DNA of 64,000 nucleotides, taken from NCBI GenBank assembly GCA_934129885.1, contig CAKOWU010000004.1:857-64856 (forward strand). The letters are read 5' to 3'. The first letter of the stretch is position 1; every line of letters begins with the position of its first letter. The DNA comes from an uncultured Bacilli bacterium (lineage in GTDB: Bacteria; Bacillota_I; Bacilli_A; RF39; UBA660). Positions 6,883-64,000 of this stretch are shown here, one piece after another. A program made the translations under genes and the position numbers. The notes under the pieces are model-generated. The model saw nothing but the letters and a program-made list of their open reading frames with translations. It did no database searches and had not been told where the DNA came from.

Positions 6883-8124
6883 ATGGAGCATGTATATGCT
6901 AGTATTGATATTGGTAGTGATGCAATAAAACTTGTTGTTTGTGAACTATATAATGGCAATTTGAATTTACTAGCGGCATCTTCCGTACCATCAAATGGAA
7001 TAAAAAAAGGATTGATTATAGATCCTGAACTTGCCAAAGAGTCAATAAGCAAAGCCTTTGATGAGGTAAAAGCAATGCTTGGCTTCGAAGTAAAAGAAGT
7101 AATTGCTTCTGCTGCTTTATATAAAGTGGAATACAAAGTTGTAAAAAGTGATTGTGATGTTAAAGGTGATTTAATTACTGCTAGTGAAATTAATACTTTA
7201 TATAAAAGAGCAGTTAGAGATAATCTAACCAATAATAAGGAGTTTGTTACCCTCTACCCAATTGACTTTATCATTAATGGTAAAAATAAAATGATAGATC
7301 CAAAAGGTTTCCCTGGAACAAAACTTTCTTCTAGATGGATGATGATATCTCTTCCTAAAAAGAATTTATACTCTGTTGCCAGTATTTTAGAAGACTTAGG
7401 AATAGAAATTGTAGACATATCTGTTAGTAGTATCGGTAATTATTGCTTAAGTAAAAATGAAAAACATAGAGATGCAGTAGGCTTTATCATTGATATGGGC
7501 AGTGAGACTACAACTATAAGTCTATATAATAAAGGCGTCCCTATCGCTTCCAAAGTCATTGGTATGGGCGGACGCGATATTGATTCTGACATCTCTTACA
7601 TGTATAAAATAGACATAGATGAGGCAAAAAAAATAAAACACAGATTTGTTAGATGTTCAAAGAAGTATATTAACCCTGATGATTATTATGAGATTACTAA
7701 TGAAAAAGGCGAAGTAATCAAAATTAATCAGGTCGAGGTAAGTGAAATTGCTACGTCTAGAATGGAAGAGATAATTTCTTTAGTAAAAAATGAAATTAAC
7801 CTCTTAACAAATAAGCCAATTCAGTATATAATATTAACTGGTGGTACCAGTAACCTTAAAGATTTAAACAAACTGGTATCTAGAATATTAAATTCTAAAA
7901 CTGAAACAGAAAAGATTAAACTTATTGGTGTTAGGAATAACAAATATTCAGTAGCCCTTGGTAACATTATTTATTTTACTGACAATTTGAAATTAAAGGG
8001 GCAAGATTTTACAATGCTAGAGAATGATGATATGGAAGTGTTGTCATCACCAGATAAGCATTTTGTAGACACTTCAAATGAGACAATGCTGGGTAAAGTG
8101 TTTGGATACTTTTTCGGCGAATAG
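6883..8124 (+). CDS. ftsA: Cell division protein FtsA
   Basis: It has an actin-like ATPase fold. The N-terminal 'ASIDIGSDAIKLVV' and 'ILTGGTSNLKDL' are FtsA hallmarks. The RBS is 'taggagga', and ftsZ lies immediately downstream. Confidence 0.9.
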   Translation: MEHVYASIDIGSDAIKLVVCELYNGNLNLLAASSVPSNGIKKGLIIDPELAKESISKAFDEVKAMLGFEVKEVIASAALYKVEYKVVKSDCDVKGDLITASEINTLYKRAVRDNLTNNKEFVTLYPIDFIINGKNKMIDPKGFPGTKLSSRWMMISLPKKNLYSVASILEDLGIEIVDISVSSIGNYCLSKNEKHRDAVGFIIDMGSETTTISLYNKGVPIASKVIGMGGRDIDSDISYMYKIDIDEAKKIKHRFVRCSKKYINPDDYYEITNEKGEVIKINQVEVSEIATSRMEEIISLVKNEINLLTNKPIQYIILTGGTSNLKDLNKLVSRILNSKTETEKIKLIGVRNNKYSVALGNIIYFTDNLKLKGQDFTMLENDDMEVLSSPDKHFVDTSNETMLGKVFGYFFGE

Positions 8125-8136
8125 GAGGATGGAATT

Positions 8137-9186
8137 ATGTTTGGTGGATTAGAAATGGATCAACTTGCAAAAATAAAAGTAATAGGAATAGGTGGCGGCG
8201 GCTGTAATGCCGTTAATAGAATGATCGAATCAGGGGTACAAGCAGTAGAATTTATTGTCGCAAATACTGATTCACAAGTTCTTAATAATTCTCTAGCGGA
8301 GAATAAAATTCAAATAGGTGAAGAATTAACTAATGGTCTTGGGGCCGGAGCAAACCCTGAAGTGGGTAAAGAGGCTGCCCTAGAATCTAAAGATGTAATC
8401 GAAGAGTCTTTAAAAGGTTCTGATATGGTATTTGTTACCTGTGGTATGGGTGGTGGTACCGGTACTGGTGCCGCTCCCGTAGTTGCGGATATTGCTCAAA
8501 ATTTAGGTGCTTTAACTGTTGGAATCGTTACAAAGCCTTTCTCTTTTGAAGGTAAGAAACGTATGGAACAAGCCCTTAATGGCATTAAAGAATTAAAAAA
8601 ACACGTAGATACTTTAATTATCGTACCTAACGATAGATTAAGGGAGATTATTGATAAGTCTACACCGCTTATTGACTCTTTTAAAGAAGTTGATAATGTA
8701 CTTAGACGCGGTGTTCAATCTATATCTGATTTAATCGCAGTCGCAGGGCTTATTAACCTAGATTTTGCGGACGTAAAAGCCGTTATGGAAAAACGTGGTA
8801 ACGCACTTATAGGTATTGGTGCTGGTGTAGGAGAAGACAGAGCTGTTGAAGCTGCTAATCAAGCAGTATTAAGTCCTCTTTTAGAAACTAGTATCGATGG
8901 TGCAACAGACGCCATTATAAACGTTACAGGTGGACCTAATCTAACTTTATTTGAAGTTGAAGAGGCGGTAGAAACTATCAGAAAATCAGCGAATACTGAT
9001 ATAAATACAATATTTGGTGCCGTTATTAACGAAAACTTTACCGATGAAATTATTGTGACCGTTATTGCTACCGGTTTTGATGATGAGGATAATACACGTG
9101 ATGAGGACGTTGATGACTTATTACTTGATGATACAGATGACGATAGTGCAGTTATCCCAGCCTTTTTAAGAAAAAGAAACTTTTAA
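8137..9186 (+). CDS. ftsZ: Cell division GTPase FtsZ
   Basis: It carries the tubulin signature 'GGGTGTG' and '[15 protein letters not shown]', and ends in an acidic C-terminal tail. Confidence 0.95.
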
Positions 9187-9193
9187 TCCTAAC

Positions 9194-9240
9194 TCATAGA
9201 GCATTGCTTTATGAGCTTTTAGTTTTTTCACTTGGAATTA
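9194..9240 (+). terminator. Putative rho-independent terminator after ftsZ
   Basis: It is a hairpin, 'ctcataGAGCATTGCTTtatgag', followed by a T-rich run. Confidence 0.4.
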
Positions 9241-9384
9241 TAGAGCCTTAAAAAATCATTCAAAACAATTGACATTAGCCCCAAATCCTATAAAATAGAA
9301 TATGTAAGTGAGCTTTATTTACGTACGAATTAAAAAACATATGAAATAAAAGGAAACATTCAGTTAGATAGCACTCCAACTGAG

Positions 9385-9690
9385 GTGTTAGATATTTACA
9401 TTCGTATAGAGGAATCTGAAAAAATTTCACCCCATCACCGGCTTAATTCCATTATATTATTACTTAGTCACGGTCACTTGCTTAGTGACATCCAGGCAGA
9501 TGATAAAATTATACATTCAGTAAGAATAGGAGATGCAGACGATATTATCGTTAACCTTACCCCAGCCAATTTCATATTCTATAATCCTGAACGTTCAGAT
9601 ATCATGGATAGCGACATCAACAAAACTAGAGGTGCAAAAAGTTATGAGGCTCTAATGAAAACTGTATCATATTGCCTTCATAAACAGTAA
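9385..9690 (+). CDS. Hypothetical protein (GTG start, weak RBS); a doubtful gene
   Basis: This is only a six-frame ORF with no recognisable motifs. It sits in an 870-bp gap between ftsZ and rbgA. Confidence 0.2.
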   Translation: MLDIYIRIEESEKISPHHRLNSIILLLSHGHLLSDIQADDKIIHSVRIGDADDIIVNLTPANFIFYNPERSDIMDSDINKTRGAKSYEALMKTVSYCLHKQ

Positions 9691-10068
9691 ACTACTCAAA
9701 AAGACTATTCAAAAGCCCTGATAAAAGACATTCAAAATAATCAGTAGTAATTTTTATGTGAAAAGCCATGTACCCATATCGTGGTTTTTTCATGCAAAAC
9801 TTTCATCTGCACCTATACAAAAATATATACAGGCTGCTTAAGTATTTATCCGCTAGACGCAAATAGCCATATATTCATAAAAATATCTGTTTTTATGTAG
9901 TAAGCAAAACCCTAAAAAGGTCCTATCAAGCAGAAATCATAAACATTTTTGTTCTTGACTATAACCGCATTGTCGTGTTATAGTTGATTTGAATAAATAT
10001 CAAAGAAAGAAAAAAACGCAAATTAAATAAAAAATAGTTAAAATTCAAAACCAAAGGAAGTGAATGCA

Positions 10069-10950
10069 ATGAACGAAAATCAAAGTAAATCATCTCATAA
10101 AATAAACATCAACCATTATCCAGGCCATATGGCAAAAACGAAAAGATTGATTAAAGAAAATTTACCACTAATAGATATTGTTTACGAAATAGTGGACTCA
10201 AGGATTCCTTATTCATCAAAAATAACAGATATAGACGAGTATATTAAAAACAAACCCAAAATAATTGTTTTTACCAAAGATGATTTGTGTGATAAAATAG
10301 AAACAGAAAAATGGAAAGAATATTACCAAAGAGAGGGTAATAAAGTAATATCTATGAATCTAGAAGGTAATGCCAATGTTAAACCATTGATAACGCTTAC
10401 TGAAAAAGTCATGGAAGAAGAAAATAAAAAAAGAATAGAAAAAGGTTTACTAAAAAGAAAAGCAAGAGTCCTAGTAGTAGGAGTTCCAAATGTTGGTAAA
10501 AGTACTTTAATAAATCGCCTTTCTGGTAAAAAAGTAGTGAATACGGGAAACAAACCAGGAATAACCAAAAATATCAGTTGGATACGCGTAAATGATAAAA
10601 TAGAACTTCTAGATACTCCAGGAATACTTTGGCCAAAACTAACAGATTCCGCCCTTAATCTAGCGGCCCTCACAGCCATCAAAGAAGAAGTTCTTCCTTT
10701 ATATGATGTCACAGAATATATACTTCGTACTTTAGAAAAATATTATCCGAATATCCTAAAGGAAAGATATAATTTAGATACCCTTCATGATGATATTATT
10801 GAAGATTTAGAAGAAATTGGTAAAAAAAGAGGCTGCTTAATAAGTGGTGGTGAAGTAGATTACGATAAAGTAATAAACGTCATCATGAATGACATAAAAT
10901 TAGGATACGTTAAAGGGATAACATTTGATAGATATGACGAACATAACTAA
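10069..10950 (+). CDS. rbgA: Ribosome biogenesis GTPase A (YlqF/RbgA)
   Basis: The circularly permuted GTPase motifs 'HYPGHMAKT' and 'VGVPNVGKSTLINRL...DTPGILWPK' are present. The ATG at 10069 has an aaaggaag RBS. Confidence 0.85.
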   Translation: MNENQSKSSHKININHYPGHMAKTKRLIKENLPLIDIVYEIVDSRIPYSSKITDIDEYIKNKPKIIVFTKDDLCDKIETEKWKEYYQREGNKVISMNLEGNANVKPLITLTEKVMEEENKKRIEKGLLKRKARVLVVGVPNVGKSTLINRLSGKKVVNTGNKPGITKNISWIRVNDKIELLDTPGILWPKLTDSALNLAALTAIKEEVLPLYDVTEYILRTLEKYYPNILKERYNLDTLHDDIIEDLEEIGKKRGCLISGGEVDYDKVINVIMNDIKLGYVKGITFDRYDEHN

Positions 10951-11302
10951 CTCACTAACACTTGCGTACCTAGGCGATGCCGTATACGAAGTATATATTA
11001 GAAAGTATTTAATAAATAAAGGAATAATAAAAGTAAATGAACTTCAAAAAAACGCCGTAAAATATGTAAGTGCTAAAGCTCAAAGTGATATTTTAGAAAA
11101 ACTAATCAGCAAAGGTGTTCTAACCGAGCATGAGCAAAACATCGTAAAAAGAGCACGTAACCATAAAAGTCATTCATCAAAAAGCACTGACATCATAACA
11201 TATAAACGTTCAACCGGATTTGAGGCTTTAATTGGCTACTTAGAAATAAATAACAAACAAAGACTAGAAGAAATAATAAACTTTGTAATAGGAGATGAAT
11301 AA
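10925..11302 (+). CDS. mrnC: Mini-ribonuclease 3
   Basis: 'LAYLGDAVYEVYIRKYL' is the RNase III-like catalytic motif. The 125-aa size is typical of Mini-III. Confidence 0.8.
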   Translation: MIDMTNITNSLTLAYLGDAVYEVYIRKYLINKGIIKVNELQKNAVKYVSAKAQSDILEKLISKGVLTEHEQNIVKRARNHKSHSSKSTDIITYKRSTGFEALIGYLEINNKQRLEEIINFVIGDE

Positions 11303-11991
11303 TGTATATATATGGAAAAAACGCTTCTAAAGAAGCATTACAAAAAGGAAAAGTAAAACAAGCCTTTTTATATAAAAAATTCAAAGAAAAAGAAATACAA
11401 ACTTTATTAGAAAACAAAAACGTAAAAGTAACGTATTTAGATAAATACGAATTAGATAAAAAGCAAAAAGGTAACCACCAAGGAATAATATTAGAAGTAG
11501 AAGACTATAAATATTATTCATTAGACGACGCTACCGAAAACACCATAGTAATGCTTGATCATTTGGAAGATCCTCATAATTTTGGCGCAATAATTAGAAC
11601 TTGTGAAGCCGCAGGAATTAAAAACATCATTATCCCTAAAGATAGAAGTGTCAAAGTTACAAGCACAGTTATCAAAGTAAGCGTGGGTGCTATAGAAAAC
11701 GTTAAAATTATCATGGTAAATAATCTGGTGAACGCCCTAAAAAAATTAAAAGATAGTGGTTACTGGGTTATCGGTACCGATATGGAAGGGGAGGACTATC
11801 GCCTTTTAGACTACACTGGTAAAAAGGTAATTGTTATCGGTAGTGAGGGCAGTGGCCTAAGTAGACTCACCGAAGAAAACTGTGATTTTATTGCGAGTAT
11901 CCCTATGAACGGAACCGTAAATAGCCTCAACGCTTCAGTCGCCGCCGCTTTAGTAATTTATGAGTCTCAAAGAGGCAACTTAAATGCTTAA
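11302..11991 (+). CDS. rlmB: TrmH-family 23S rRNA (Gm2251) methyltransferase (YacO/RlmB-like)
   Basis: It has SpoU methylase motifs ('DPHNFGAIIRTCEAAG', 'IGSEGSGL'). Its position after mrnC matches the Bacillus arrangement. Confidence 0.8.
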   Translation: MYIYGKNASKEALQKGKVKQAFLYKKFKEKEIQTLLENKNVKVTYLDKYELDKKQKGNHQGIILEVEDYKYYSLDDATENTIVMLDHLEDPHNFGAIIRTCEAAGIKNIIIPKDRSVKVTSTVIKVSVGAIENVKIIMVNNLVNALKKLKDSGYWVIGTDMEGEDYRLLDYTGKKVIVIGSEGSGLSRLTEENCDFIASIPMNGTVNSLNASVAAALVIYESQRGNLNA

Positions 11992-56024: not shown

Positions 56025-57440
56025 ATGAATGATAAAAATAAAAAAATAGAAGAGGCCAAAGAATTCTTTAAAGTATTTAGGACACCTAAAGGCAAAGAAA
56101 TCAAAGTAAAAAAAATTACTGATGATAAGATTTTAGAACTACACCAAAAGATAAAAGAAACTTTTCCAAAGGAATATAAAGAGGCTATGCAAAAAATAAG
56201 AAATTCTAATTCAAACTCACATGAACAAAACTACCAATTTTATAGCAATAGTGCTTTACATGATGCTTATAAATTTTTTGCGTATTATGACGTGGGTCAA
56301 AAAGAAGGTTATAACGTGAGTGCTCTTACGGATAAAGAAGTAATGGCATTGTATTTAGATATAAAAATGAATTATCCAACAACATATAATTCTGTAATGG
56401 AGAAAATGAGAAAAACTATTAAACCTAGAAAAGTTATTATCCCAAGTAATTCTAGTTTAAGTAGTGGTAGTATGTCTAAGGCCGCCTCTAAAAGTAGCGG
56501 GGATACCTTCATCGAACCCAAAAAGCAAAATAATGATTTAGAAGAAAATAAAAAGAAAGCCATGGATAGTTTATATCCAGAAAAGCCTGATGATAATATA
56601 AGTAAAGATAATCAAGATAATCCCCAAAATAAAGAATTGGATGATTTAGAAAAGCAAAGAAAACAAGACGCTGCCGATAAAGAAGCAGCCATAAATTCTT
56701 TGCATCCAGAAGATAATGTAGTAGATAATGATAATGTTGACTTATCAAAATTTGGTTTGTCAGATGATGAAAACGAAAAAGACGAACCCCCAGTTAAGGT
56801 TACAAATAAAAGAAATATTGCAAAAGATAAATTATTAAACTTATTAGATAAACTAAAAAATGATAGAGCATTTAGGAAACAAGTTATAATTGGGGTTGCT
56901 GTCGCAGTTGCCGGTATCGCAGCTATAGGTAGTGCTATCGCCTATACTGCTGTAACAGGTGACGGTTCTGTTATGAATAATGCTGCTGATGTAGCTAATC
57001 AAGCAGTAAACACTACTAGTCAAAGCGTAGATGCAAATACTTTTGCGGCCGCAAGTAACTTTGACTTAAACTCTGTAAATTTAAATAACGTAAACTTTGA
57101 CTTAAATAATGTTGCGGAAATATATAGTAATGCAGGGGATGCTGCAAACCTAACCGGAGGACTTGCACCAGATTCATCTGCGGGTGAAGTTTATATGGCT
57201 GATTTATTCAATAACGCCACAGGTGAGTATATGAATATCGATCCAAACAAATTAAACTTAGATGAACTAAATGCCCTAATTAATAATGGCGACTATAGCG
57301 TTGCCTATACCAATAGTGCTGATTTAGTAGGACAAGGCGGCGACAAACTCGCAAACGCCGGACAAATAACAGGATTTGGCAATGTTAATGACTATATAGA
57401 TATGGCCAAAGAAACAATACAAAATAGTAAGGGGCTATAA
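56025..57440 (+). CDS. Hypothetical single-pass membrane protein with a duplicated ~55-aa N-terminal domain and an Asn/Ala-rich C-terminus
   Basis: There is an internal repeat, 'FFKVFRTPKGKEIKVKKITDDKILELHQKIKETFPKEYKEAMQKIR' // 'FFAYYDVGQKEGYNVSALTDKEVMALYLDIKMNYPTTYNSVMEKMR'. The TM segment is 'VIIGVAVAVAGIAAIGSAIAYTAV'. Confidence 0.4.
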   Translation: MNDKNKKIEEAKEFFKVFRTPKGKEIKVKKITDDKILELHQKIKETFPKEYKEAMQKIRNSNSNSHEQNYQFYSNSALHDAYKFFAYYDVGQKEGYNVSALTDKEVMALYLDIKMNYPTTYNSVMEKMRKTIKPRKVIIPSNSSLSSGSMSKAASKSSGDTFIEPKKQNNDLEENKKKAMDSLYPEKPDDNISKDNQDNPQNKELDDLEKQRKQDAADKEAAINSLHPEDNVVDNDNVDLSKFGLSDDENEKDEPPVKVTNKRNIAKDKLLNLLDKLKNDRAFRKQVIIGVAVAVAGIAAIGSAIAYTAVTGDGSVMNNAADVANQAVNTTSQSVDANTFAAASNFDLNSVNLNNVNFDLNNVAEIYSNAGDAANLTGGLAPDSSAGEVYMADLFNNATGEYMNIDPNKLNLDELNALINNGDYSVAYTNSADLVGQGGDKLANAGQITGFGNVNDYIDMAKETIQNSKGL

Positions 57441-57714: not shown

Positions 57715-57777
57715 AATCTTGCTTTTTTCTTGTAATAAAGAAAAAAATAGTATACAATTATTATTAGGGTGAACAAT

Positions 57778-58296
57778 ATGAAAAGAACAGGATTTACACT
57801 AATCGAATTAATGGGTGCAGTCATAATATTATCTTTAATTGCTTTACTTGCATTCCCGTCAGTCGTAAACATGATAAAATCTGCGGATGAAGAAATAGAC
57901 AGTGCACTCAAAGAAAAACTCATCTCCGCAGCGGAGCAGTACGTCAATGATAATGCAGACGACTTTCCAATGACTAAATCAAATAATTATTCAAAATGCG
58001 AACAACTACCAAATAATGCTTATAACTTATCTGTTGATGTCTATGACGATCTTTTAAATGGCGAGTATATAGATGAGGATCTATTAGACGAATATAATAA
58101 AAACAAGGATGAAAGTGAGCAAATCATTAAAGGTGGAAATAAAAATTTAAGAACAATATACGTAGGCAATATATATTATGAAAAAACATATAAGAAAGAA
58201 TATAATACTGGAAACGATAAAACCACTACAACTACAAATAAAAAGGCAATACAAAAATATTGCTATAAATATGGAGGAGACCTCAAAAATGAATAA
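57778..58296 (+). CDS. Type IV prepilin-like protein
   Basis: The canonical motif 'MKRTG|FTLIELMGAVIILSLIALLAF' is present. The upstream promoter is TTGTAA-15-TATACA. Confidence 0.7.
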   Translation: MKRTGFTLIELMGAVIILSLIALLAFPSVVNMIKSADEEIDSALKEKLISAAEQYVNDNADDFPMTKSNNYSKCEQLPNNAYNLSVDVYDDLLNGEYIDEDLLDEYNKNKDESEQIIKGGNKNLRTIYVGNIYYEKTYKKEYNTGNDKTTTTTNKKAIQKYCYKYGGDLKNE

Positions 58297-58789
58297 GAAA
58301 GCCTTTACCTTACTTGAACTGCTCGCGGTTATTATAATCATTGCCATCCTTGCACTTGTAACCGTGCCTACCGTAACCAACATCATAAAAAACTCTAGAA
58401 ATTCTACCTTTCAAGATAGTGTGCATGCTCTCTATAAATCTGGCGTGAGTTATCACGAAGAAAGCACAATTAACTCAAGCATAAAATTGCCACTCGTCGT
58501 AAAATTTACAAACAAAAAAGTCACATATTATACTCAGAGTGAAGATAAAACCGCTTGTGAGACTGCCACAGTTACAAATAGTAACGAACTAGAATATAGT
58601 GGTCAAAATCTAGAAGATGCAACATTGACTATTACAAAAGAGGGCACTATTAATATTGCTGCTTGGAATAAAAATGATAAATCTTGTTACCAAATCACCA
58701 GTGATAGTAAAAAAGTTATCAAACTAGAAAGCATTAAAAATAAAGCCGCCTGCAGCATAGATATTAACGCTATATGCACATCAAAATAA
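58290..58789 (+). CDS. Type IV prepilin-like protein, related to the ORF at 51306
   Basis: The RBS is GGAGGAG and the signal is 'MNKKA|FTLLELLAVIIIIAILALVTVPTVTNIIKNSR'. A terminator lies at 58790-58822. Confidence 0.7.
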
Positions 58790-58874: not shown

Positions 58875-59981
58875 ATGACATATTTAGATTATAGTGCAAC
58901 TACACCAGTAGATGACGAAGTATTAAAAACATTTGTAAAAGCCTCAAAATATATAGGCAACCCTAATTCACTTCACAAACTAGGTATAAATGCCAAAGAA
59001 CTAATAGACGCTAGTACAAATCAAATTGCAAATATCCTTGGCGTAAAAGCGAACGAAATAATATATACATCTGGAGCATCCGAAGCTAACAATACTGTTA
59101 TTAAAGGTATAGAAAACTATAAAAGCAGAGGTAACCATATAATAACAACCAACCTAGAACACTCATCAATATATGGACCTTTAAAATATATGCAAGACCG
59201 TGGCTATGAAATATCATACGTTCCTTTAAAAAACGGATTAGTAGATATGGATGCCCTAGAAAACATGATAACAGATAAAACAGTACTCGTAACTATAAGT
59301 GCTGTAAATAGTGAAACAGGCGTTAGACAAAATATTGAGCAAATAGGACAGATGTTAAAAAAATATCCTAAAGTAATATTTCATAGTGATATAACGCAGG
59401 CTGTTGGTAAAATAAATATTGATTTAGCAAATGTCGATCTAGCATCTTTCTCAGCCCATAAATTCTTTGGTATAAAAGGAATAGGGGCTTTAATAAAAAA
59501 AGAAAATATAACCCTAACCCCTTTAATAGCGGGCGGTAAAAGCACAACTGCGTATAGAAGCGGTACACCACCAACATCTCTAATCGCCAGCATGGCTAAA
59601 GCTCTTAGATTAGCACATGAAAACTTAAACGTTAAATATGTAGAAGAGTTAAATAATAAAATAAAAAGTAAACTAAAAACCTATGAAAAAGTGCATATCA
59701 ATAGTAATGAATTTTCAGTACCTCATATCTTAAATTTTAGTATTTCAGGCGTAAAACCAGAAACCTTTCTTCATGCTTTAGAAGAAGATGAAGTATATAT
59801 ATCAACCCAAAGTGCTTGTGCTAAAGGTAATAGCTCCAGATCTGTTTTAGCACTTACCGGTAGTGAGGACCTCGCCACAACTAGCCTTAGAATAAGTTTG
59901 TCCATTAAAACAACCATGCAAGATGTAAATCGGTTTTTAGATAGTTTTGATAAAAATTATAGAAAGTTGGTTATAAAATGA
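58875..59981 (+). CDS. Cysteine desulfurase (NifS/IscS-like class V aminotransferase)
   Basis: The PLP-lysine motif 'SAHKFFGIKGIGAL' and 'LDYSATTP' are present. Confidence 0.85.
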   Translation: MTYLDYSATTPVDDEVLKTFVKASKYIGNPNSLHKLGINAKELIDASTNQIANILGVKANEIIYTSGASEANNTVIKGIENYKSRGNHIITTNLEHSSIYGPLKYMQDRGYEISYVPLKNGLVDMDALENMITDKTVLVTISAVNSETGVRQNIEQIGQMLKKYPKVIFHSDITQAVGKINIDLANVDLASFSAHKFFGIKGIGALIKKENITLTPLIAGGKSTTAYRSGTPPTSLIASMAKALRLAHENLNVKYVEELNNKIKSKLKTYEKVHINSNEFSVPHILNFSISGVKPETFLHALEEDEVYISTQSACAKGNSSRSVLALTGSEDLATTSLRISLSIKTTMQDVNRFLDSFDKNYRKLVIK

Positions 59982-59982
59982 G
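59959..59982 (+). repeat. Left copy of a perfect 24-bp direct repeat, ATAGAAAGTTGGTTATAAAATGAG. It spans the nifS 3' end and the ATG of the LRR-like gene.
   Basis: It is identical to 62146-62169. Confidence 0.8.
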
Positions 59983-62149
59983 CGAAGCAAATGCATGGAT
60001 AGACATGATAACAAAATTATATACTCATCTGCATGAGTCAGATGCAGTAATGCATACCTCTAATGAAAATACAAAGAAAAGAGAAAGAATATATAAATAC
60101 TTTGAAAGATTAGAAAGAGTACATAATAAAGTTTCAAATAGTAAAAATAAATCATCAGAACTATTACTTAAAAAATTTTATTATGATATGTATGTTGTAA
60201 AACCAGAAAATATTCCAGATAGTTACTTTCAAAATGAACAAAGAATAATGCGAGAAAGAGGGTATGGCAACGTTGAATTAACATCAGAAAGAAAACAAAT
60301 ACTAATAGATCAAATAATATCCGATCAAAAAGAAAGCCTTGATAAATGGATTGAATATTTTCTTTACGACGAAGAAAGTAAATCATATGAAATGTGGGAG
60401 AAATATTGGGTATTTCAAGGACTACAAAAACTAGGGAAATTTGATAAAGAAAAAATGAAATTTTCCAAAAGAGATAAAACAACAGTTTATCCGTTCCCAC
60501 CAGTAGAAAGAGAAGCCATATTTAGTACTTTGAAACTAATGGAAGACTATATAAAAGGTAAAGATACTGAAGAAGAAATAAGAAATGCTTTGGGTAGTGG
60601 AAACTTTAAAACTTTATACGAATATTCCATGAAACAAATGATGCAAAAAGGAGAAAAGCAAAATAATGCTACCGAAGGTAAATGGGTTAAATATGAACAA
60701 GGTTCTGATTATAATTTACTAAGAAACTCACTCCAAGGCTATTATACAGGTTGGTGTACTGCCGCCGGTGAAAACTTTGCTAAAGGACAGTTAGCAAATG
60801 GAGACTTCTATGTTTATTACACCATGGATGAAAATAATGAACCTAAAGTACCTAGAATAGCCATAAGAATGGACGGAAAGGACACCATAGGAGAAATAAG
60901 AGGCATCGCAGATAATCAAAATATGGAGCCAGAAATGATGCCTATATTAAATGAAAAATTAGAAGAATTTCCAGATAAAGATAGATATCAAAAGAAAGAA
61001 TACGATATGCAATACTTAACATCCATAGACAGAAAAGTAAAAAAAGGTATTGAACTATCTGTAGATGAATTAAGGTTTTTATATGAAATAGACAGCGAAA
61101 TTGAGGGATTTGGATATCGAAAAGATCCTAGAATAAAAGAAATAAAGTCTAATAGAGATAAATATGAAGATTTAGCAAAAATATTTAATTGTACTAAAGA
61201 TGAAATATCAGACGATAAAAATGATGTTTTAAGTGGTAAGAAATTAGTGTATTTTCATGGTGACCTTGATTTGGAAGAATTAACCACTGCCGAAGGACTT
61301 GTTTTACCAGAAAAAATAGGCGGCTATTTAGACTTGCGCGGATTAACCAGTGCCGAAGGCTTAGTCTTGCCAAAAGAAATAGGTGGAACTCTTTACTTAA
61401 ATAGCCTAACAAGTGCCGAAGGCTTAGTTTTTCCAAAAGAAATCGGTGAAGCTCTTTACTTAAATAGCCTAACCAGTGCAGAAAACTTAATCTTGCCAGA
61501 GAAATTAGGAAGCGATCTTGGTTTAAATAGCCTAACAAGTGCCGCCAGTTTAATTATGCCAAAAGAAATAGGTGGAACTCTTTACTTAAATAGCCTAATA
61601 AGTGCCGAAAGTTTAGTTATGCCAAAAAAAATTGGTGGAACTCTTCACTTAAATAGCCTAATAAGTGCCGAAGGTTTAGTCTTGCCAGAAGAAATCGGTG
61701 TAACTCTTCGCTTAAATAGCTTAACAAGTGCCGAAGGCTTAGTCTTGCCAGAAAAAATAAATAATTCTCTTTGCTTAGATAGTCTAACAAGTGCCGAAGG
61801 TTTAGTTATGCCGAAAGAAATCGGTGGAACTCTTCACTTAAATAGCCTAACAAGTGCAGAAAACTTAATCTTGCCCGAGGAATTAGGCGGTGATCTTTGG
61901 TTAAATAGCCTAACAAGTGCTGACGGTTTAGTTATGCCAAAAGAAATCGGTGGAACTCTTTACTTGGAGGGATTAACCACAGTCGATGGTTTAATGTTAC
62001 CAGAAAATTTTGATTTAGATAACTTGATTATTGATGAATCACTTGAAGAAGAAATAATGCCAAACCCAAATAAATACTATAGACATCCAGAAATCACTCA
62101 AAATGATATTTTAAATAATAGTAAAACGGAAGTTCATAAAACAAGATAG
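59978..62149 (+). CDS. Cytoplasmic protein with an unknown ~430-aa N-terminal domain and 12 tandem 21-aa LRR-like repeats (consensus LyLNSLTSAEGLVLPKEIGGT)
   Basis: It has no signal peptide. Its ATG is shared with the nifS stop (ATGA). The repeats are near-identical at the DNA level. The N-domain motif 'YYTGWCTAAGENFAKGQLANGDFYVYY' was not recognised. Confidence 0.55.
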   Translation: MSEANAWIDMITKLYTHLHESDAVMHTSNENTKKRERIYKYFERLERVHNKVSNSKNKSSELLLKKFYYDMYVVKPENIPDSYFQNEQRIMRERGYGNVELTSERKQILIDQIISDQKESLDKWIEYFLYDEESKSYEMWEKYWVFQGLQKLGKFDKEKMKFSKRDKTTVYPFPPVEREAIFSTLKLMEDYIKGKDTEEEIRNALGSGNFKTLYEYSMKQMMQKGEKQNNATEGKWVKYEQGSDYNLLRNSLQGYYTGWCTAAGENFAKGQLANGDFYVYYTMDENNEPKVPRIAIRMDGKDTIGEIRGIADNQNMEPEMMPILNEKLEEFPDKDRYQKKEYDMQYLTSIDRKVKKGIELSVDELRFLYEIDSEIEGFGYRKDPRIKEIKSNRDKYEDLAKIFNCTKDEISDDKNDVLSGKKLVYFHGDLDLEELTTAEGLVLPEKIGGYLDLRGLTSAEGLVLPKEIGGTLYLNSLTSAEGLVFPKEIGEALYLNSLTSAENLILPEKLGSDLGLNSLTSAASLIMPKEIGGTLYLNSLISAESLVMPKKIGGTLHLNSLISAEGLVLPEEIGVTLRLNSLTSAEGLVLPEKINNSLCLDSLTSAEGLVMPKEIGGTLHLNSLTSAENLILPEELGGDLWLNSLTSADGLVMPKEIGGTLYLEGLTTVDGLMLPENFDLDNLIIDESLEEEIMPNPNKYYRHPEITQNDILNNSKTEVHKTR
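61265..62020 (+). repeat. Twelve tandem 63-bp coding repeats
   Basis: Periodicity was read directly. Each unit encodes one 21-aa LRR-like repeat. Confidence 0.8.
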
Positions 62150-62169
62150 AAAGTTGGTTATAAAATGAG
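62146..62169 (+). repeat. Right copy of the 24-bp direct repeat. It contains the stop of the LRR-like gene and the comEB start.
   Basis: It is identical to 59959-59982. Confidence 0.8.
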
Positions 62170-62644
62170 AATAGATAAAACAAATTATTATTTAGATTTA
62201 GCGGAAACTATTCTAGAAAGGGGTACCTGTTTAAGAAGGAACTATGGTGCCGTAATAGTTAAAAATGATGAAGTAATCTCTACTGGCTACACAGGGGCCC
62301 CAAGAGGTAGAGCCAACTGCATTAATTTAAATAAATGTATAAGAGAAGAACTTAATATTCCAAAAGGGCAGAGATACGAACTATGTCGTAGTGTCCATGC
62401 TGAGCAAAACGCTATTATCTCGGCACCAAGGCGCGATATGATAGGAAGTACTCTTTATCTAGTTGGAAAAGAATATAAAACAAATAAATATGTAGAGGGT
62501 GCGACACCATGTGAACTTTGTAAAAGGTTTATAATCAACGCTGGTATTGAAAATATAATAATCAGAGATACCAAGGATAAATATAGAACTATAAAAGTAA
62601 GTAAATATATTCAGCATGATGACACGATAAAAGAAACCATATAA
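62165..62644 (+). CDS. comEB: dCMP deaminase (ComEB-type cytidine/deoxycytidylate deaminase)
   Basis: The Zn-binding motifs 'CRSVHAEQNAI' and 'PCELCKRFIINAGI' are present. A terminator at 62647-62675 lies downstream. Confidence 0.85.
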   Translation: MRIDKTNYYLDLAETILERGTCLRRNYGAVIVKNDEVISTGYTGAPRGRANCINLNKCIREELNIPKGQRYELCRSVHAEQNAIISAPRRDMIGSTLYLVGKEYKTNKYVEGATPCELCKRFIINAGIENIIIRDTKDKYRTIKVSKYIQHDDTIKETI

Positions 62645-62656
62645 AAAGCAGAACAA

Positions 62657-63913
62657 TTATTGTTCTGTTTTTTCTTTACTAGACATACTTATCGTAATAT
62701 ATTCATTTTTAGAAATAATTGTTCCCTCATTTATACTTTGCCCGCTTGCAATTGTATCTAAAGAAGTTACGTTATCCGAAAACTCAAGTAAACATTTAAT
62801 ACCAAGTTTATCGCACGTTTTTAAAACCATATCTGAACTTTTAGAACTAAAATCAGGAACCGTTACCCCTTTACCTTTAGATACCGTCAAAGTAACCGTG
62901 TCTTTATTAGAAACATTAGAATCTACCGGCACTGATGAATTAATAATATATCCAGCCTTTACATTAGACGAGAATTCATAAGTAGTATCATATTTTATTC
63001 CGTTCCTCTTTAAATATACACTAGCGGATAAATAACTTTCATTATATAAATCCTTCATTTTAATATCTTTCAAATTAGAAGCATCTCCTAAAGAAACATT
63101 AAATTCCACTAAAGTATTTCTTCTTATATCGCCACTAACACTTTGAAAAGTAATCGTATCTCTATCTACATCTTTATTTTCTACATAATTAATATTAACA
63201 TTGTTTAACCTATATTGCTTTATCATTTTAAGTGCCATATCAATATCTTTACCAGTCATATTTGGAATATTAACTTCTTTATGTGTATCTGTACCATTAG
63301 AAACTACATAATTAATACTAGATACATCCTTTACAAACTCTCCAGCATTAATGCTTTGACTTATAACAGAGCCTTCATTAACTTCATCTGAATATTCGTA
63401 AGTAACCTTTGCCTTCACATTATTATCATCAGACCATTTTAAAACTTTTTTATAAGAAACGTCATAAAAATTAGGTACTGTCTTTTGAGCTGGTAAATTT
63501 ATAATGCCCATTATATATAAAGCATTAAATAAAACAAATAGGGTAGTAAACAAAGCCGTCACTAGCGTACCGCGCACTCTTTTATACATAAATGCATGTT
63601 TAAAAGAAACTAAATAACTGATCATAATTATTATTATAAATATGGCATTTAAAATATAATATAATTCGTTAACTTTTTCACTAGAAACATAAATAAGCAA
63701 AAAACAAAACGCTACCACTAAAACAAACAATATCGATAAAAATACATTAGTTGCCGTCGGCTTTCCGGTCATCTTAAAATTAATAAAATCTTCGTCCATA
63801 TCCTCATTGAAAACTATTTTCCTAAGTTCTTCGCGCTTTTGGGCAAGTTCCTCTTCTTTTTTTGTTTGCATCTCGCGTCCTTCGTATCTACTAACACGGC
63901 TTTTATACTCCAT
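62657..63913 (-). CDS. Membrane-anchored PASTA-domain protein (no kinase domain)
   Basis: The N-terminal cytoplasmic region is followed by a TM segment and then 3-4 PASTA-like repeats ('KVTYEYSDEVNEGSVISQSINAGEFV', 'TLTVSKGKGVTVPDF'). The start is at 'MEYKS', with a GGTGAGGTG RBS. Confidence 0.6.
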   Translation of the reverse strand: MEYKSRVSRYEGREMQTKKEEELAQKREELRKIVFNEDMDEDFINFKMTGKPTATNVFLSILFVLVVAFCFLLIYVSSEKVNELYYILNAIFIIIIMISYLVSFKHAFMYKRVRGTLVTALFTTLFVLFNALYIMGIINLPAQKTVPNFYDVSYKKVLKWSDDNNVKAKVTYEYSDEVNEGSVISQSINAGEFVKDVSSINYVVSNGTDTHKEVNIPNMTGKDIDMALKMIKQYRLNNVNINYVENKDVDRDTITFQSVSGDIRRNTLVEFNVSLGDASNLKDIKMKDLYNESYLSASVYLKRNGIKYDTTYEFSSNVKAGYIINSSVPVDSNVSNKDTVTLTVSKGKGVTVPDFSSKSSDMVLKTCDKLGIKCLLEFSDNVTSLDTIASGQSINEGTIISKNEYITISMSSKEKTEQ

Positions 63914-64000
63914 ACACCTCACCACTTAAATTATAACCTATATTTCACCCAAAATGTAAATATATTTTATTTTGCTTTACCAAACTTTACAAATATCCAC

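Follow-up and report, generated by a model that had tools for sequence, protein, structure and literature searches.

The gene analysed here is an open reading frame (ORF) at positions 59978..62149 (+) of a 64,000-nucleotide stretch of DNA from an uncultured Bacilli bacterium (assembly GCA_934129885.1, contig CAKOWU010000004.1, positions 857 to 64,856, forward strand). This whole stretch is referred to as the window. The ORF (723 amino acids, aa, plus stop) encodes a leaderless, probably cytoplasmic protein of a very large unnamed family, in which two modules are combined. The first is a strongly conserved head of about 430 aa, whose core is distantly related, with a probable shift in function, to the PcfJ domain that phages and conjugative plasmids carry. 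The second is a solenoid of 21-aa units that would serve as a target-recognition surface, contacts being made by the solvent-exposed positions 13, 15 and 17 at the second LxL strand. In this species, the tail diversifies by gain and loss of repeat units, and whole tandem gene copies are gained and lost, probably by recombination at a shared cassette junction of 22-24 bp. In other lineages, the solenoid is replaced by a C-terminal domain rewritten by a diversity-generating retroelement (DGR). The head would supply a constant activity, and the tail would bind a variable macromolecular ligand. The family probably recognises variable targets, because one head is paired with repeat-number change, tandem paralogues and retro-mutagenesis. 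Intracellular sensing, in a setting of biological conflict (anti-invader) or of interaction with a partner, is the most likely role and is proposed with moderate confidence. It is favoured because the protein carries no export signal.

Diversification of the repeat tail and of the gene copies

A 63-bp period was found by Tandem Repeats Finder at 61279-61979 (11.1 copies, 74% match), together with super-periods of 126 and 189 bp (scores 747-816, far above chance). In the protein, 12 in-register units of 21 aa occupy aa 430-681; the first and the last are degenerate caps. The protein register agrees with the twelve 63-bp units counted in a first-pass annotation of the window, which was made from the sequence alone. 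The solenoid that this annotation expected from AlphaFold was obtained with AlphaFold2 (predicted local distance difference test, pLDDT: 90-96 over the repeats). The family consensus, established from 532 distinct units, is A-E-G-L-V-L-P-x-[S/H/T/N]-I-G-G-x-L-x-L-x-S-L-T-S. LxL motifs recur at i, i+10 and i+21. Entropy peaks at repeat positions 13, 9, 15 and 17, of which 13, 15 and 17 alternate around the second LxL strand. The hypervariable position 15, occupied by D in 40% of distinct units, is also the most variable repeat position within the species (four strain variants of 723 aa). Position 9, in the best-fitting leucine-rich repeat (LRR) register, is E or K in the window protein; family-wide, it is S (31%), H (22%), T (9%) or N (8%), S/H/T/N being found in about 70% of distinct units and S/T/N in about 48%. 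T-S is found at positions 20-21; the first-pass reading, in which Thr-Ser takes the place of the usual Asn, could not be confirmed.

The whole gene is under purifying selection (ratio of nonsynonymous to synonymous substitution rates, dN/dS, 0.12-0.47). In orthologous strain pairs, dN/dS is 0.15-0.20 for the head and 0.39-0.47 for the tail, that is, 2-3 times higher for the tail; over all seven pairs compared, the value for the head ranges from 0.13 to 0.47. Tandem paralogues have near-identical heads (dS 0.15) and very divergent tails (dS about 1.6). Among the four variants of 723 aa, variable sites are more frequent in the repeats (0.083 per site) than in the head (0.044 per site; Fisher p=0.04), and 8 variable sites are found in the 42-aa non-repeat tail that follows the solenoid. 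Within one cluster at 90% identity, members differ in length by multiples of 21 aa, and C-terminal modules are swapped across the members of the family. The C-terminal modules of the family are interchangeable and quickly diversifying. The tail behaves as a diversifying recognition module, because its repeat number varies between strains, its positions 13, 15 and 17 are hypervariable and its dN/dS is 2-3 times that of the head.

The locus was compared between strains by means of contigs that encode an identical copy of either flanking protein (a cysteine desulfurase upstream, a deaminase downstream); about 46 contigs with flanking genes were read. A protein identical to the 723-aa product is encoded on 15 contigs. 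The strains carry at this site either a single gene (723 or 810 aa) or two tandem paralogues (702 and 744 aa; 723 and at least 665 aa; a partial copy and 848 aa), so that copy number ranges from 1 to 2 or more and length from 702 to 848 aa. No empty site between the desulfurase and deaminase genes was found in these contigs. The ORF is bracketed by a perfect 24-bp direct repeat, ATAGAAAGTTGGTTATAAAATGAG (0 expected in shuffles; coordinates in Table 1). The same motif marks each boundary of the array: desulfurase and copy 1, copy 1 and copy 2, last copy and deaminase. The junction between tandem copies is identical in L008, L010 and L011. A sister species (L021; deaminase 88% identical) has two copies at this site, and one and the same one-base variant of the motif is found at both junctions. 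Because this variant co-varies within the genome of the sister species, the junctions are considered to evolve in concert. Flanking duplications at 79 loci of other species were found only inside tandem arrays. Because the 24-bp repeat is present at all boundaries, co-varies and is restricted to tandem arrays, it is the shared junction of an array that gains and loses copies and was not left by a recent insertion. The behaviour of the locus is that of a tandem array whose junctions are recombinogenic. The repeat as a family-wide insertion scar (target-site duplication) was ruled out, since it is seen only at tandem-array junctions.

The direct repeat had been read in the first-pass annotation as an insertion signature, and the protein as a candidate for horizontal acquisition with a sensing or defence function. 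The repeat is real but is a tandem-array junction, and a recent horizontal step is contradicted by the same site in the sister species, by the lack of an empty site and by a normal base composition. An anti-phage defence gene that was recently acquired by horizontal transfer and entered as a cassette between the genes of the desulfurase and the deaminase would agree with the perfect repeat that brackets the ORF, with the patchy occurrence of the family across distant phyla and with the variable repeat tail and the tandem paralogues. However, a repeat that is present at every array boundary and co-varies within genomes denotes concerted evolution and not a one-off target duplication. The sister species carries its array at the same site, none of the roughly 46 contigs has an empty site, and junction duplication is not general in the family. 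The GC content (0.27-0.38) equals that of the flanks and is not anomalous, PADLOC is blank and homologues lie among housekeeping genes. Neither the phage nor the plasmid collections contain the head, and among 2.9 million viral contigs it occurs in just 1. The recent-insertion part of this explanation is largely refuted, and the explanation as a whole is judged quite improbable. The sensing part of the claim is partly supported by the recognition behaviour of the tail; no defence-island context was found.

A selfish, self-propagating ORF (a homing-type cassette that inserts into operons) would explain why the gene lies between normally adjacent genes in several lineages and why identical junctions flank the cassette. 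It is hardly credible: no nuclease, transposase or recombinase domain is detectable (the weak HNH_5 match is an artefact amplified by the repeats), the gene keeps its position across species and is under purifying selection over its whole length, and flanking duplications are absent outside tandem arrays.

Head domain and its resemblance to PcfJ

The head gave no meaningful match in Pfam, NCBIfam, PADLOC, PHROGs or the PDB sequences, and nothing was found by sequence and profile searches of the PDB. The statement of the first-pass annotation that the N-terminal domain of about 430 aa belongs to no recognised family therefore agrees with the curated libraries. The tests of the family against curated libraries and by alignment used an alignment of 73 members. 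AlphaFold2, run with this alignment, gave a mean pLDDT of 87.4 and a predicted template modelling score (pTM) of 0.71 for the whole protein, and 85.5 and 0.73 for the head alone. Neither the full model nor the head alone gave a Foldseek match to the PDB below E~2. Invariant residues of the helical region in the 73-sequence alignment: Y83, G95, G97, Q117, W124, Y127, K157 and R165. The core that follows is predicted to have the topology beta-alpha-[loop TGW-C260-TA]-alpha-beta-beta-beta-alpha, and the motif YYTGWCTAAGENFAKGQLANGDFYVYYT is located at aa 255-282. The C-terminal module of the head (about 65 aa) is present 2-5 times in some homologues (P0174, P0203, P0245).

Several candidate assignments were rejected. 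Matches to Thr_synth_N, Glutaredoxin2_C, HNH_5 and MoeA_C, and the JGI name 'Roadblock/LC7/MglB', are artefacts amplified by the repeats. A GNAT acetyltransferase lead (Foldseek probability of at most 0.13, one weak Pfam GNAT match) is not significant, and no acetyl-CoA motif is present. Cys260 was considered as part of a papain-like Cys-His pair, a peroxiredoxin TxxC motif or a protein tyrosine phosphatase (PTP) CX5R motif; by our reasoning none applies, as no fold is matched and neither an invariant His nor an invariant Arg lies in register.

Two weak Foldseek matches of the model to 'PcfJ-like' phage proteins prompted a direct comparison with PcfJ. The PcfJ alignment includes thirteen sequences: PcfJ of pCF10, nine diverse phage PcfJ proteins and three relatives from protein databases. 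The Pfam domain PF14284 spans residues 287-433 of pCF10 PcfJ (control score 148.9 bits). A profile of 126 non-redundant heads gave, with hhalign, a single hit (score 30.6, P 0.0066, 67 columns) in which the invariant Cys of the head is placed on the PcfJ Cys; a second profile-profile comparison gave a score of 34.9 (P 0.0016). The controls scored 14.0 +/- 2.3 with a maximum of 23.1 (120 column shuffles) and 16.1 (reversed profile). The elements shared in order are G-x4-[W/H]-C, a helix, a G with a hydrophobic strand, a Pro-led strand and I-x-[E/Q]-I-R-G..N/Q. With the PF14284 hidden Markov model itself, neither the window protein nor 10 diverse heads nor any of the 73 members was matched, even at a threshold of E<=1. 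At the level of profiles, the core of the head thus resembles PcfJ as a superfamily relative and not as a member. The head is an orphan with respect to curated families, but its core is, by profile-profile comparison, distantly PcfJ-like. No solved structure of PcfJ was found in the PDB.

The PcfJ genes of phages lie in replication or nucleotide-metabolism modules. Judged from these gene contexts, the activity of the head may relate to nucleic acids or nucleotides. In pCF10, the gene beside pcfJ (L100:37207-37983), historically named pcfK, is annotated 'Cas9 inhibitor AcrIIA9 family protein'. This neighbour places PcfJ in a possible anti-defence or establishment gene cluster of pCF10.

Distribution of the family, DGR targeting and possible role

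The full protein, used as a query, retrieved at least 2,905 relatives. With the head alone, an exhaustive search gave at least 1,892 clusters at 50% identity, 1,041 of them with E<=1e-30. At least 578 genomes carry the family (scan of one genome per species). Small-genome gut Bacilli ('Tenericutes'/CAG lineages) and, in large number, Patescibacteria make up most of the carriers; a few metagenome-assembled genomes (MAGs) of Gammaproteobacteria and Melainabacteria are also among them. All source names are 'hypothetical protein', except one spurious COG label. By tblastn, no match of the head was found in 50,697 phage records or in 72,556 plasmids; it was found in 1 of 2.9 million viral contigs (IMG/VR), which is a DGR locus. 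Tandem arrays of 2-3 copies are also found in other species. On a complete MAG chromosome (CP091726.1; L043:5974-9693), two adjacent family copies have decayed to short ORF fragments (pseudogenes), which shows that the family gene can be lost in some small-genome Bacilli.

The one locus from the viral collection, L111, carries a family gene whose C-terminal domain is not made of repeats; a bAvd-like gene and then a reverse transcriptase gene follow it. The 3' end of this family gene (7706-7815) and an intergenic copy (8137-8246) form a 110-nt repeat pair, and 24 of the 25 mismatches are located at adenines of the intergenic copy. Adenine-specific mismatches to a template are the hallmark of DGRs. 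The same layout is found in L113 (member P0339), with 13 of 14 mismatches at template adenines; P0322, a close relative of P0339, differs from it mainly in the last 35 or so residues. Family members are thus DGR targets in other lineages, as verified in two loci. The window gene carries no DGR signature: no pair of template and variable repeats was found, the 24-bp junction being the sole repeat pair around the ORF.

Two further features of L111 were observed. The reverse transcriptase ORF (8582-9613) contains an (AGAC)n tract of about 26 units (9082-9225) that encodes DRQT repeats. The reading frame would change with each unit gained or lost, so that the tract could be a phase-variation switch for the DGR, or else an assembly artefact. 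Two large serine recombinase genes and a ClpB-like AAA+ gene (962-2374 and 9793-11406) flank the DGR locus and may have caused the classification of this contig as viral or mobile.

The neighbours of homologues were examined at the 79 loci. They are lineage-specific housekeeping genes, always co-oriented with the family gene, and no partner gene is conserved across lineages. In eight species (L051, L063, L064, L066, L067, L070, L084 and L091), the family gene or array lies between a parE/gyrB-like and a parC/gyrA-like gene; these topoisomerase subunit genes are normally adjacent. Elsewhere, the family gene lies inside an operon of the phosphotransferase system (PTS) or next to genes of RmuC, L19, dUTPase, DnaE/PolC or dCMP deaminase. 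The first-pass annotation had suggested that defence islands or competence genes be looked for beside homologues; no such link was found.

Such settings would suit a housekeeping adaptor or scaffold in DNA or nucleotide metabolism, the repeat tail being merely structural. The gene is co-directional in housekeeping operons (topoisomerase pair, RmuC, dUTPase, DnaE/PolC, dCMP deaminase), phage PcfJ genes lie in replication or nucleotide-metabolism modules and the head is strongly conserved. This explanation is nonetheless improbable: no neighbour is conserved across lineages, copy and repeat number differ between strains, decayed copies exist on a complete MAG chromosome and DGR targeting of members is not expected for a fixed housekeeping interaction.

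The location of the protein bears on a further explanation. In the surface proteins and effectors of bacteria, LRR-like solenoids typically serve as binding modules, and the protein could be a factor of interaction with a host or partner cell (a BspA/internalin-like adhesin or an injected effector) that is exported by a non-classical route. The enrichment of the family in reduced-genome lineages that probably depend on a host or partner (Patescibacteria and small-genome gut Bacilli) would fit such a factor. So would the signal peptides or transmembrane (TM) anchors of about 5% of the sampled members and the ComG-type pseudopilin genes just upstream in the window. The targets of cellular DGRs are, moreover, mostly surface binding proteins (PMC8144416). 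However, neither a signal peptide or lipobox nor a TM segment or wall anchor is present in the window protein or in about 95% of the relatives sampled. In the window protein, the N-terminus is polar and the maximal Kyte-Doolittle value of a 19-mer is 1.0, which agrees with the cytoplasmic location given in the first-pass annotation. The pilin neighbourhood is not conserved in homologues, and the invariant free Cys of the head would presumably be unusual outside the cell. An exported factor is considered unlikely.

Several observations weigh against intracellular sensing by a PcfJ-related head and a variable tail. The overall dN/dS of the tail is below 1, so that positive selection is not demonstrated. 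Of the invariant PcfJ pattern E-G...H-C-V...Y...R...T-x-E, the residues E367, H373, R395, T406 and E408 are replaced in the head (the His by an invariant Trp), and only the Gly and the Cys are kept, along with the downstream Pro and R-G. As most invariants are replaced, the function of PcfJ may not carry over to the head, and the literature on PcfJ function yielded nothing beyond gene listings. The DGR link is found in only 2 loci, with no reverse transcriptase or Avd gene in the window or at the 79 genome loci. No defence gene recurs beside homologues at these loci, and PADLOC gave no match for the window protein at E<=1. The location of the gene in housekeeping operons and its apparent fixation in the species are unusual for an immune gene. 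Lastly, an N-terminal hydrophobic (signal/TM) segment is found in 21 of the 392 sampled relatives, so that localisation is not uniform.

Intracellular sensing remains the favoured role. Few classical defence systems are found in Patescibacteria and small-genome gut Bacilli. A more specific proposal, tentative and at present doubtful, is that of a putative single-gene intracellular 'adaptive-like' recognition system of reduced-genome bacteria, in which a new effector or signalling fold, derived at a distance from the PcfJ domain of mobile elements, would be joined to a recognition module diversified according to the lineage (repeat shuffling, tandem amplification, DGR). Should the head prove to be an effector, the family would amount to a compact system, immune-like or for interaction, that is typical of organisms with few other known systems. 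Independently of its role, the head is a conserved domain in at least 1,900 clusters at 50% identity, unseen by curated libraries and with no structural match in the PDB at the sensitivity of Foldseek. The link between the head, PcfJ and DGRs gives a handle both on the role of PcfJ-type domains in phages and conjugative plasmids and on the identity of the non-membrane, domain-less DGR targets of the candidate phyla radiation (CPR). The strain alleles present in gut metagenomes are a natural variant series for specificity.

Gene map and comparison with known systems

The features of the locus are given in Table 1. The deaminase gene begins 15 nt past the stop of the ORF, and no + strand terminator was found between the desulfurase gene, the ORF and the deaminase gene.

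Table 1. Features of the repeat-tailed gene and of its operon partners. Positions are those of the window. The features are sorted by their start; aa numbers refer to the 723-aa protein.
Feature	Position	Strand	Basis or remark
Class-V aminotransferase / IscS-NifS-type cysteine desulfurase gene, upstream operon partner	58875..59981	+	Library matches
Junction repeat copy 1	59959..59982	.	Covers the end of the desulfurase gene (last codons, stop) and the start codon of the ORF
Complete ORF	59978..62149	+	ATG overlaps the stop codon of the upstream cysteine desulfurase gene (ATGA)
Head, N-terminal mostly helical region, aa 1-230	59978..60667	+	AlphaFold2 pLDDT mostly 80-93; conserved across the family
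Head, alpha/beta core, aa 231-330	60668..60967	+	Divergent PcfJ-like domain; predicted secondary structure and hhalign
PcfJ-aligned stretch, aa 254-328	60737-60961	+	hhalign
Codon of the invariant Cys260	60755-60757	+	Within the TGW-C-TA motif
Head, C-terminal helical module and linker, aa 331-429	60968..61264	+	...DMxxLTxIDxK...ELsxDELxFLYEID..GFGYxKDPRI....
Twelve 21-aa repeats, aa 430-681	61265..62020	+	Predicted beta-solenoid, two short strands per unit, pLDDT 90-96
C-terminal cap (conserved EEIMxNPxKYY), then variable low-confidence tail and stop	62021..62149	+	pLDDT below 50 at aa 706-723
Junction repeat copy 2	62146..62169	.	Stop of the ORF, 15-nt spacer, start codon of the deaminase gene
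dCMP/cytidine deaminase (ComEB-like) gene, downstream operon partner	62165..62644	+	Library matches
Bidirectional terminator-like hairpin	62649-62667		Past the deaminase gene

Three other parts of the window were annotated. Just upstream of the desulfurase gene (57769-58789, +), two overlapping ORFs carry prepilin-type N-terminal methylation motifs (ComGC/GD/GE-like pseudopilins); these ORFs and the ComEB-like deaminase are probably the source of the competence cue of the first-pass annotation, and this neighbourhood is not conserved in homologues. Further upstream (56025-57440, +), a gene that is kept at the same position in all strains examined encodes a 471-aa protein without family assignment (weak SUKH-1/SMI1 match only, E 0.035), in which an N-terminal segment of about 70 aa is duplicated, the middle is acidic and of low complexity and one TM-like segment is present. 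On the other side (62657-63925, -), a gene that converges on the deaminase gene at the hairpin of Table 1 (62649-62667) encodes a 422-aa protein that has TM segments at its N-terminus and four PASTA domains; neither a kinase nor a penicillin-binding domain was detected in this protein.

The repeat array consists of tandem units within the 20-30 residues of the LRR superfamily (12 x 21 aa). The canonical segment LxxLxLxxNxL is not matched: L4 and L6 are present, position 9 is off and the hydrophobic residue is at 10 and not at 11. No Pfam LRR model matched the window protein at E<=0.1; LRR_5 and LRR_14 gave weak matches, each in just 2 of the 73 members. In the viral structure library BFVD, Foldseek matched the solenoid to predicted FNIP-type LRR proteins (probability 1.00, E from 1e-4 to 5e-3, template modelling score up to 0.57 on the target) and to an uncharacterised phage protein. 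No solved LRR structure of the PDB was matched below E~10. The tail is accordingly modelled as an LRR-superfamily-like solenoid of unclassified type, structurally nearest to FNIP-type LRRs. This is in line with the first-pass view of the repeat as distinct from standard LRR subfamilies, as no Pfam LRR model recognises it and it fits no LRR class. A second 21-aa flavour exists within the family (LxSAEGLENLQxIGGxAxFxx), with a TpLRR-like IGxxAF signature.

Three LRR classes were compared with the window repeat. IRREKO units have 21 residues, a nested 10/11 periodicity and the consensus LxxLxLxxNxLxxLDLxx(N/L/Q)xx (PMC2946307). The window repeat shares the 21-residue unit, the 10/11 spacing of LxL, the hydrophobic positions 4, 6, 14, 16 and 19 and the two predicted beta-strands per unit; it differs by a position 9 that is not Asn and by the shift of the position-11 hydrophobic residue to 10, and its IGG turn and SAEG turn are not in the IRREKO consensus. 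Structures have been described for the FNIP/FGxxFN LRRs of giant viruses and Dictyostelium (PF05725; PMC9525666). Like these, the window repeat is a non-canonical LRR of about 21-22 residues with an LP motif ahead of the next unit; unlike them, it has no FG/FN motif and no phenylalanine spine, and a weak PF05725 match was found in just 1 of the 73 members. The solved Crov FNIP structures were not retrieved from the PDB by Foldseek with the window model. TpLRR/BspA repeats (LRR_5) are approached by the second flavour of the family through its IGxxAF-like signature, and two members have weak PF13306 matches. TpLRR units, however, have 23-25 residues and are typically found on secreted or surface proteins, and the window flavour has neither the A-F pair nor an LRR_5 match.

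For the head, the reference system is PcfJ (PF14284; pCF10, Herelleviridae, streptococcal phages). There, the domain is C-terminal, whereas the PcfJ-like core lies here inside an N-terminal head; PcfJ genes are borne by phages and plasmids, whereas the head of the family is chromosomal and was not found in phage or plasmid collections.

For the combination of the two modules, the closest known proteins are the DGR targets of CPR/Patescibacteria (clade-2; 'category g', PcfJ-like motif). A 'PcfJ-like protein' motif is listed upstream of the variable region in CPR DGR targets (Wu et al. 2018, PMC5758913), and CPR DGR targets have been described as devoid of recognisable domains or TM segments (Roux et al. 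2021, PMC8144416). The window gene differs from them by its mode of variation, which is turnover of repeat units and of gene copies, and by its tail, a predicted solenoid and not a globular, presumably C-type-lectin-like, variable-region domain. It resembles them in associating a conserved N-terminal domain with a hypervariable C-terminal binding domain; like them, the family usually lacks TM segments and recognisable domains, and the same head is found in L111 and L113.

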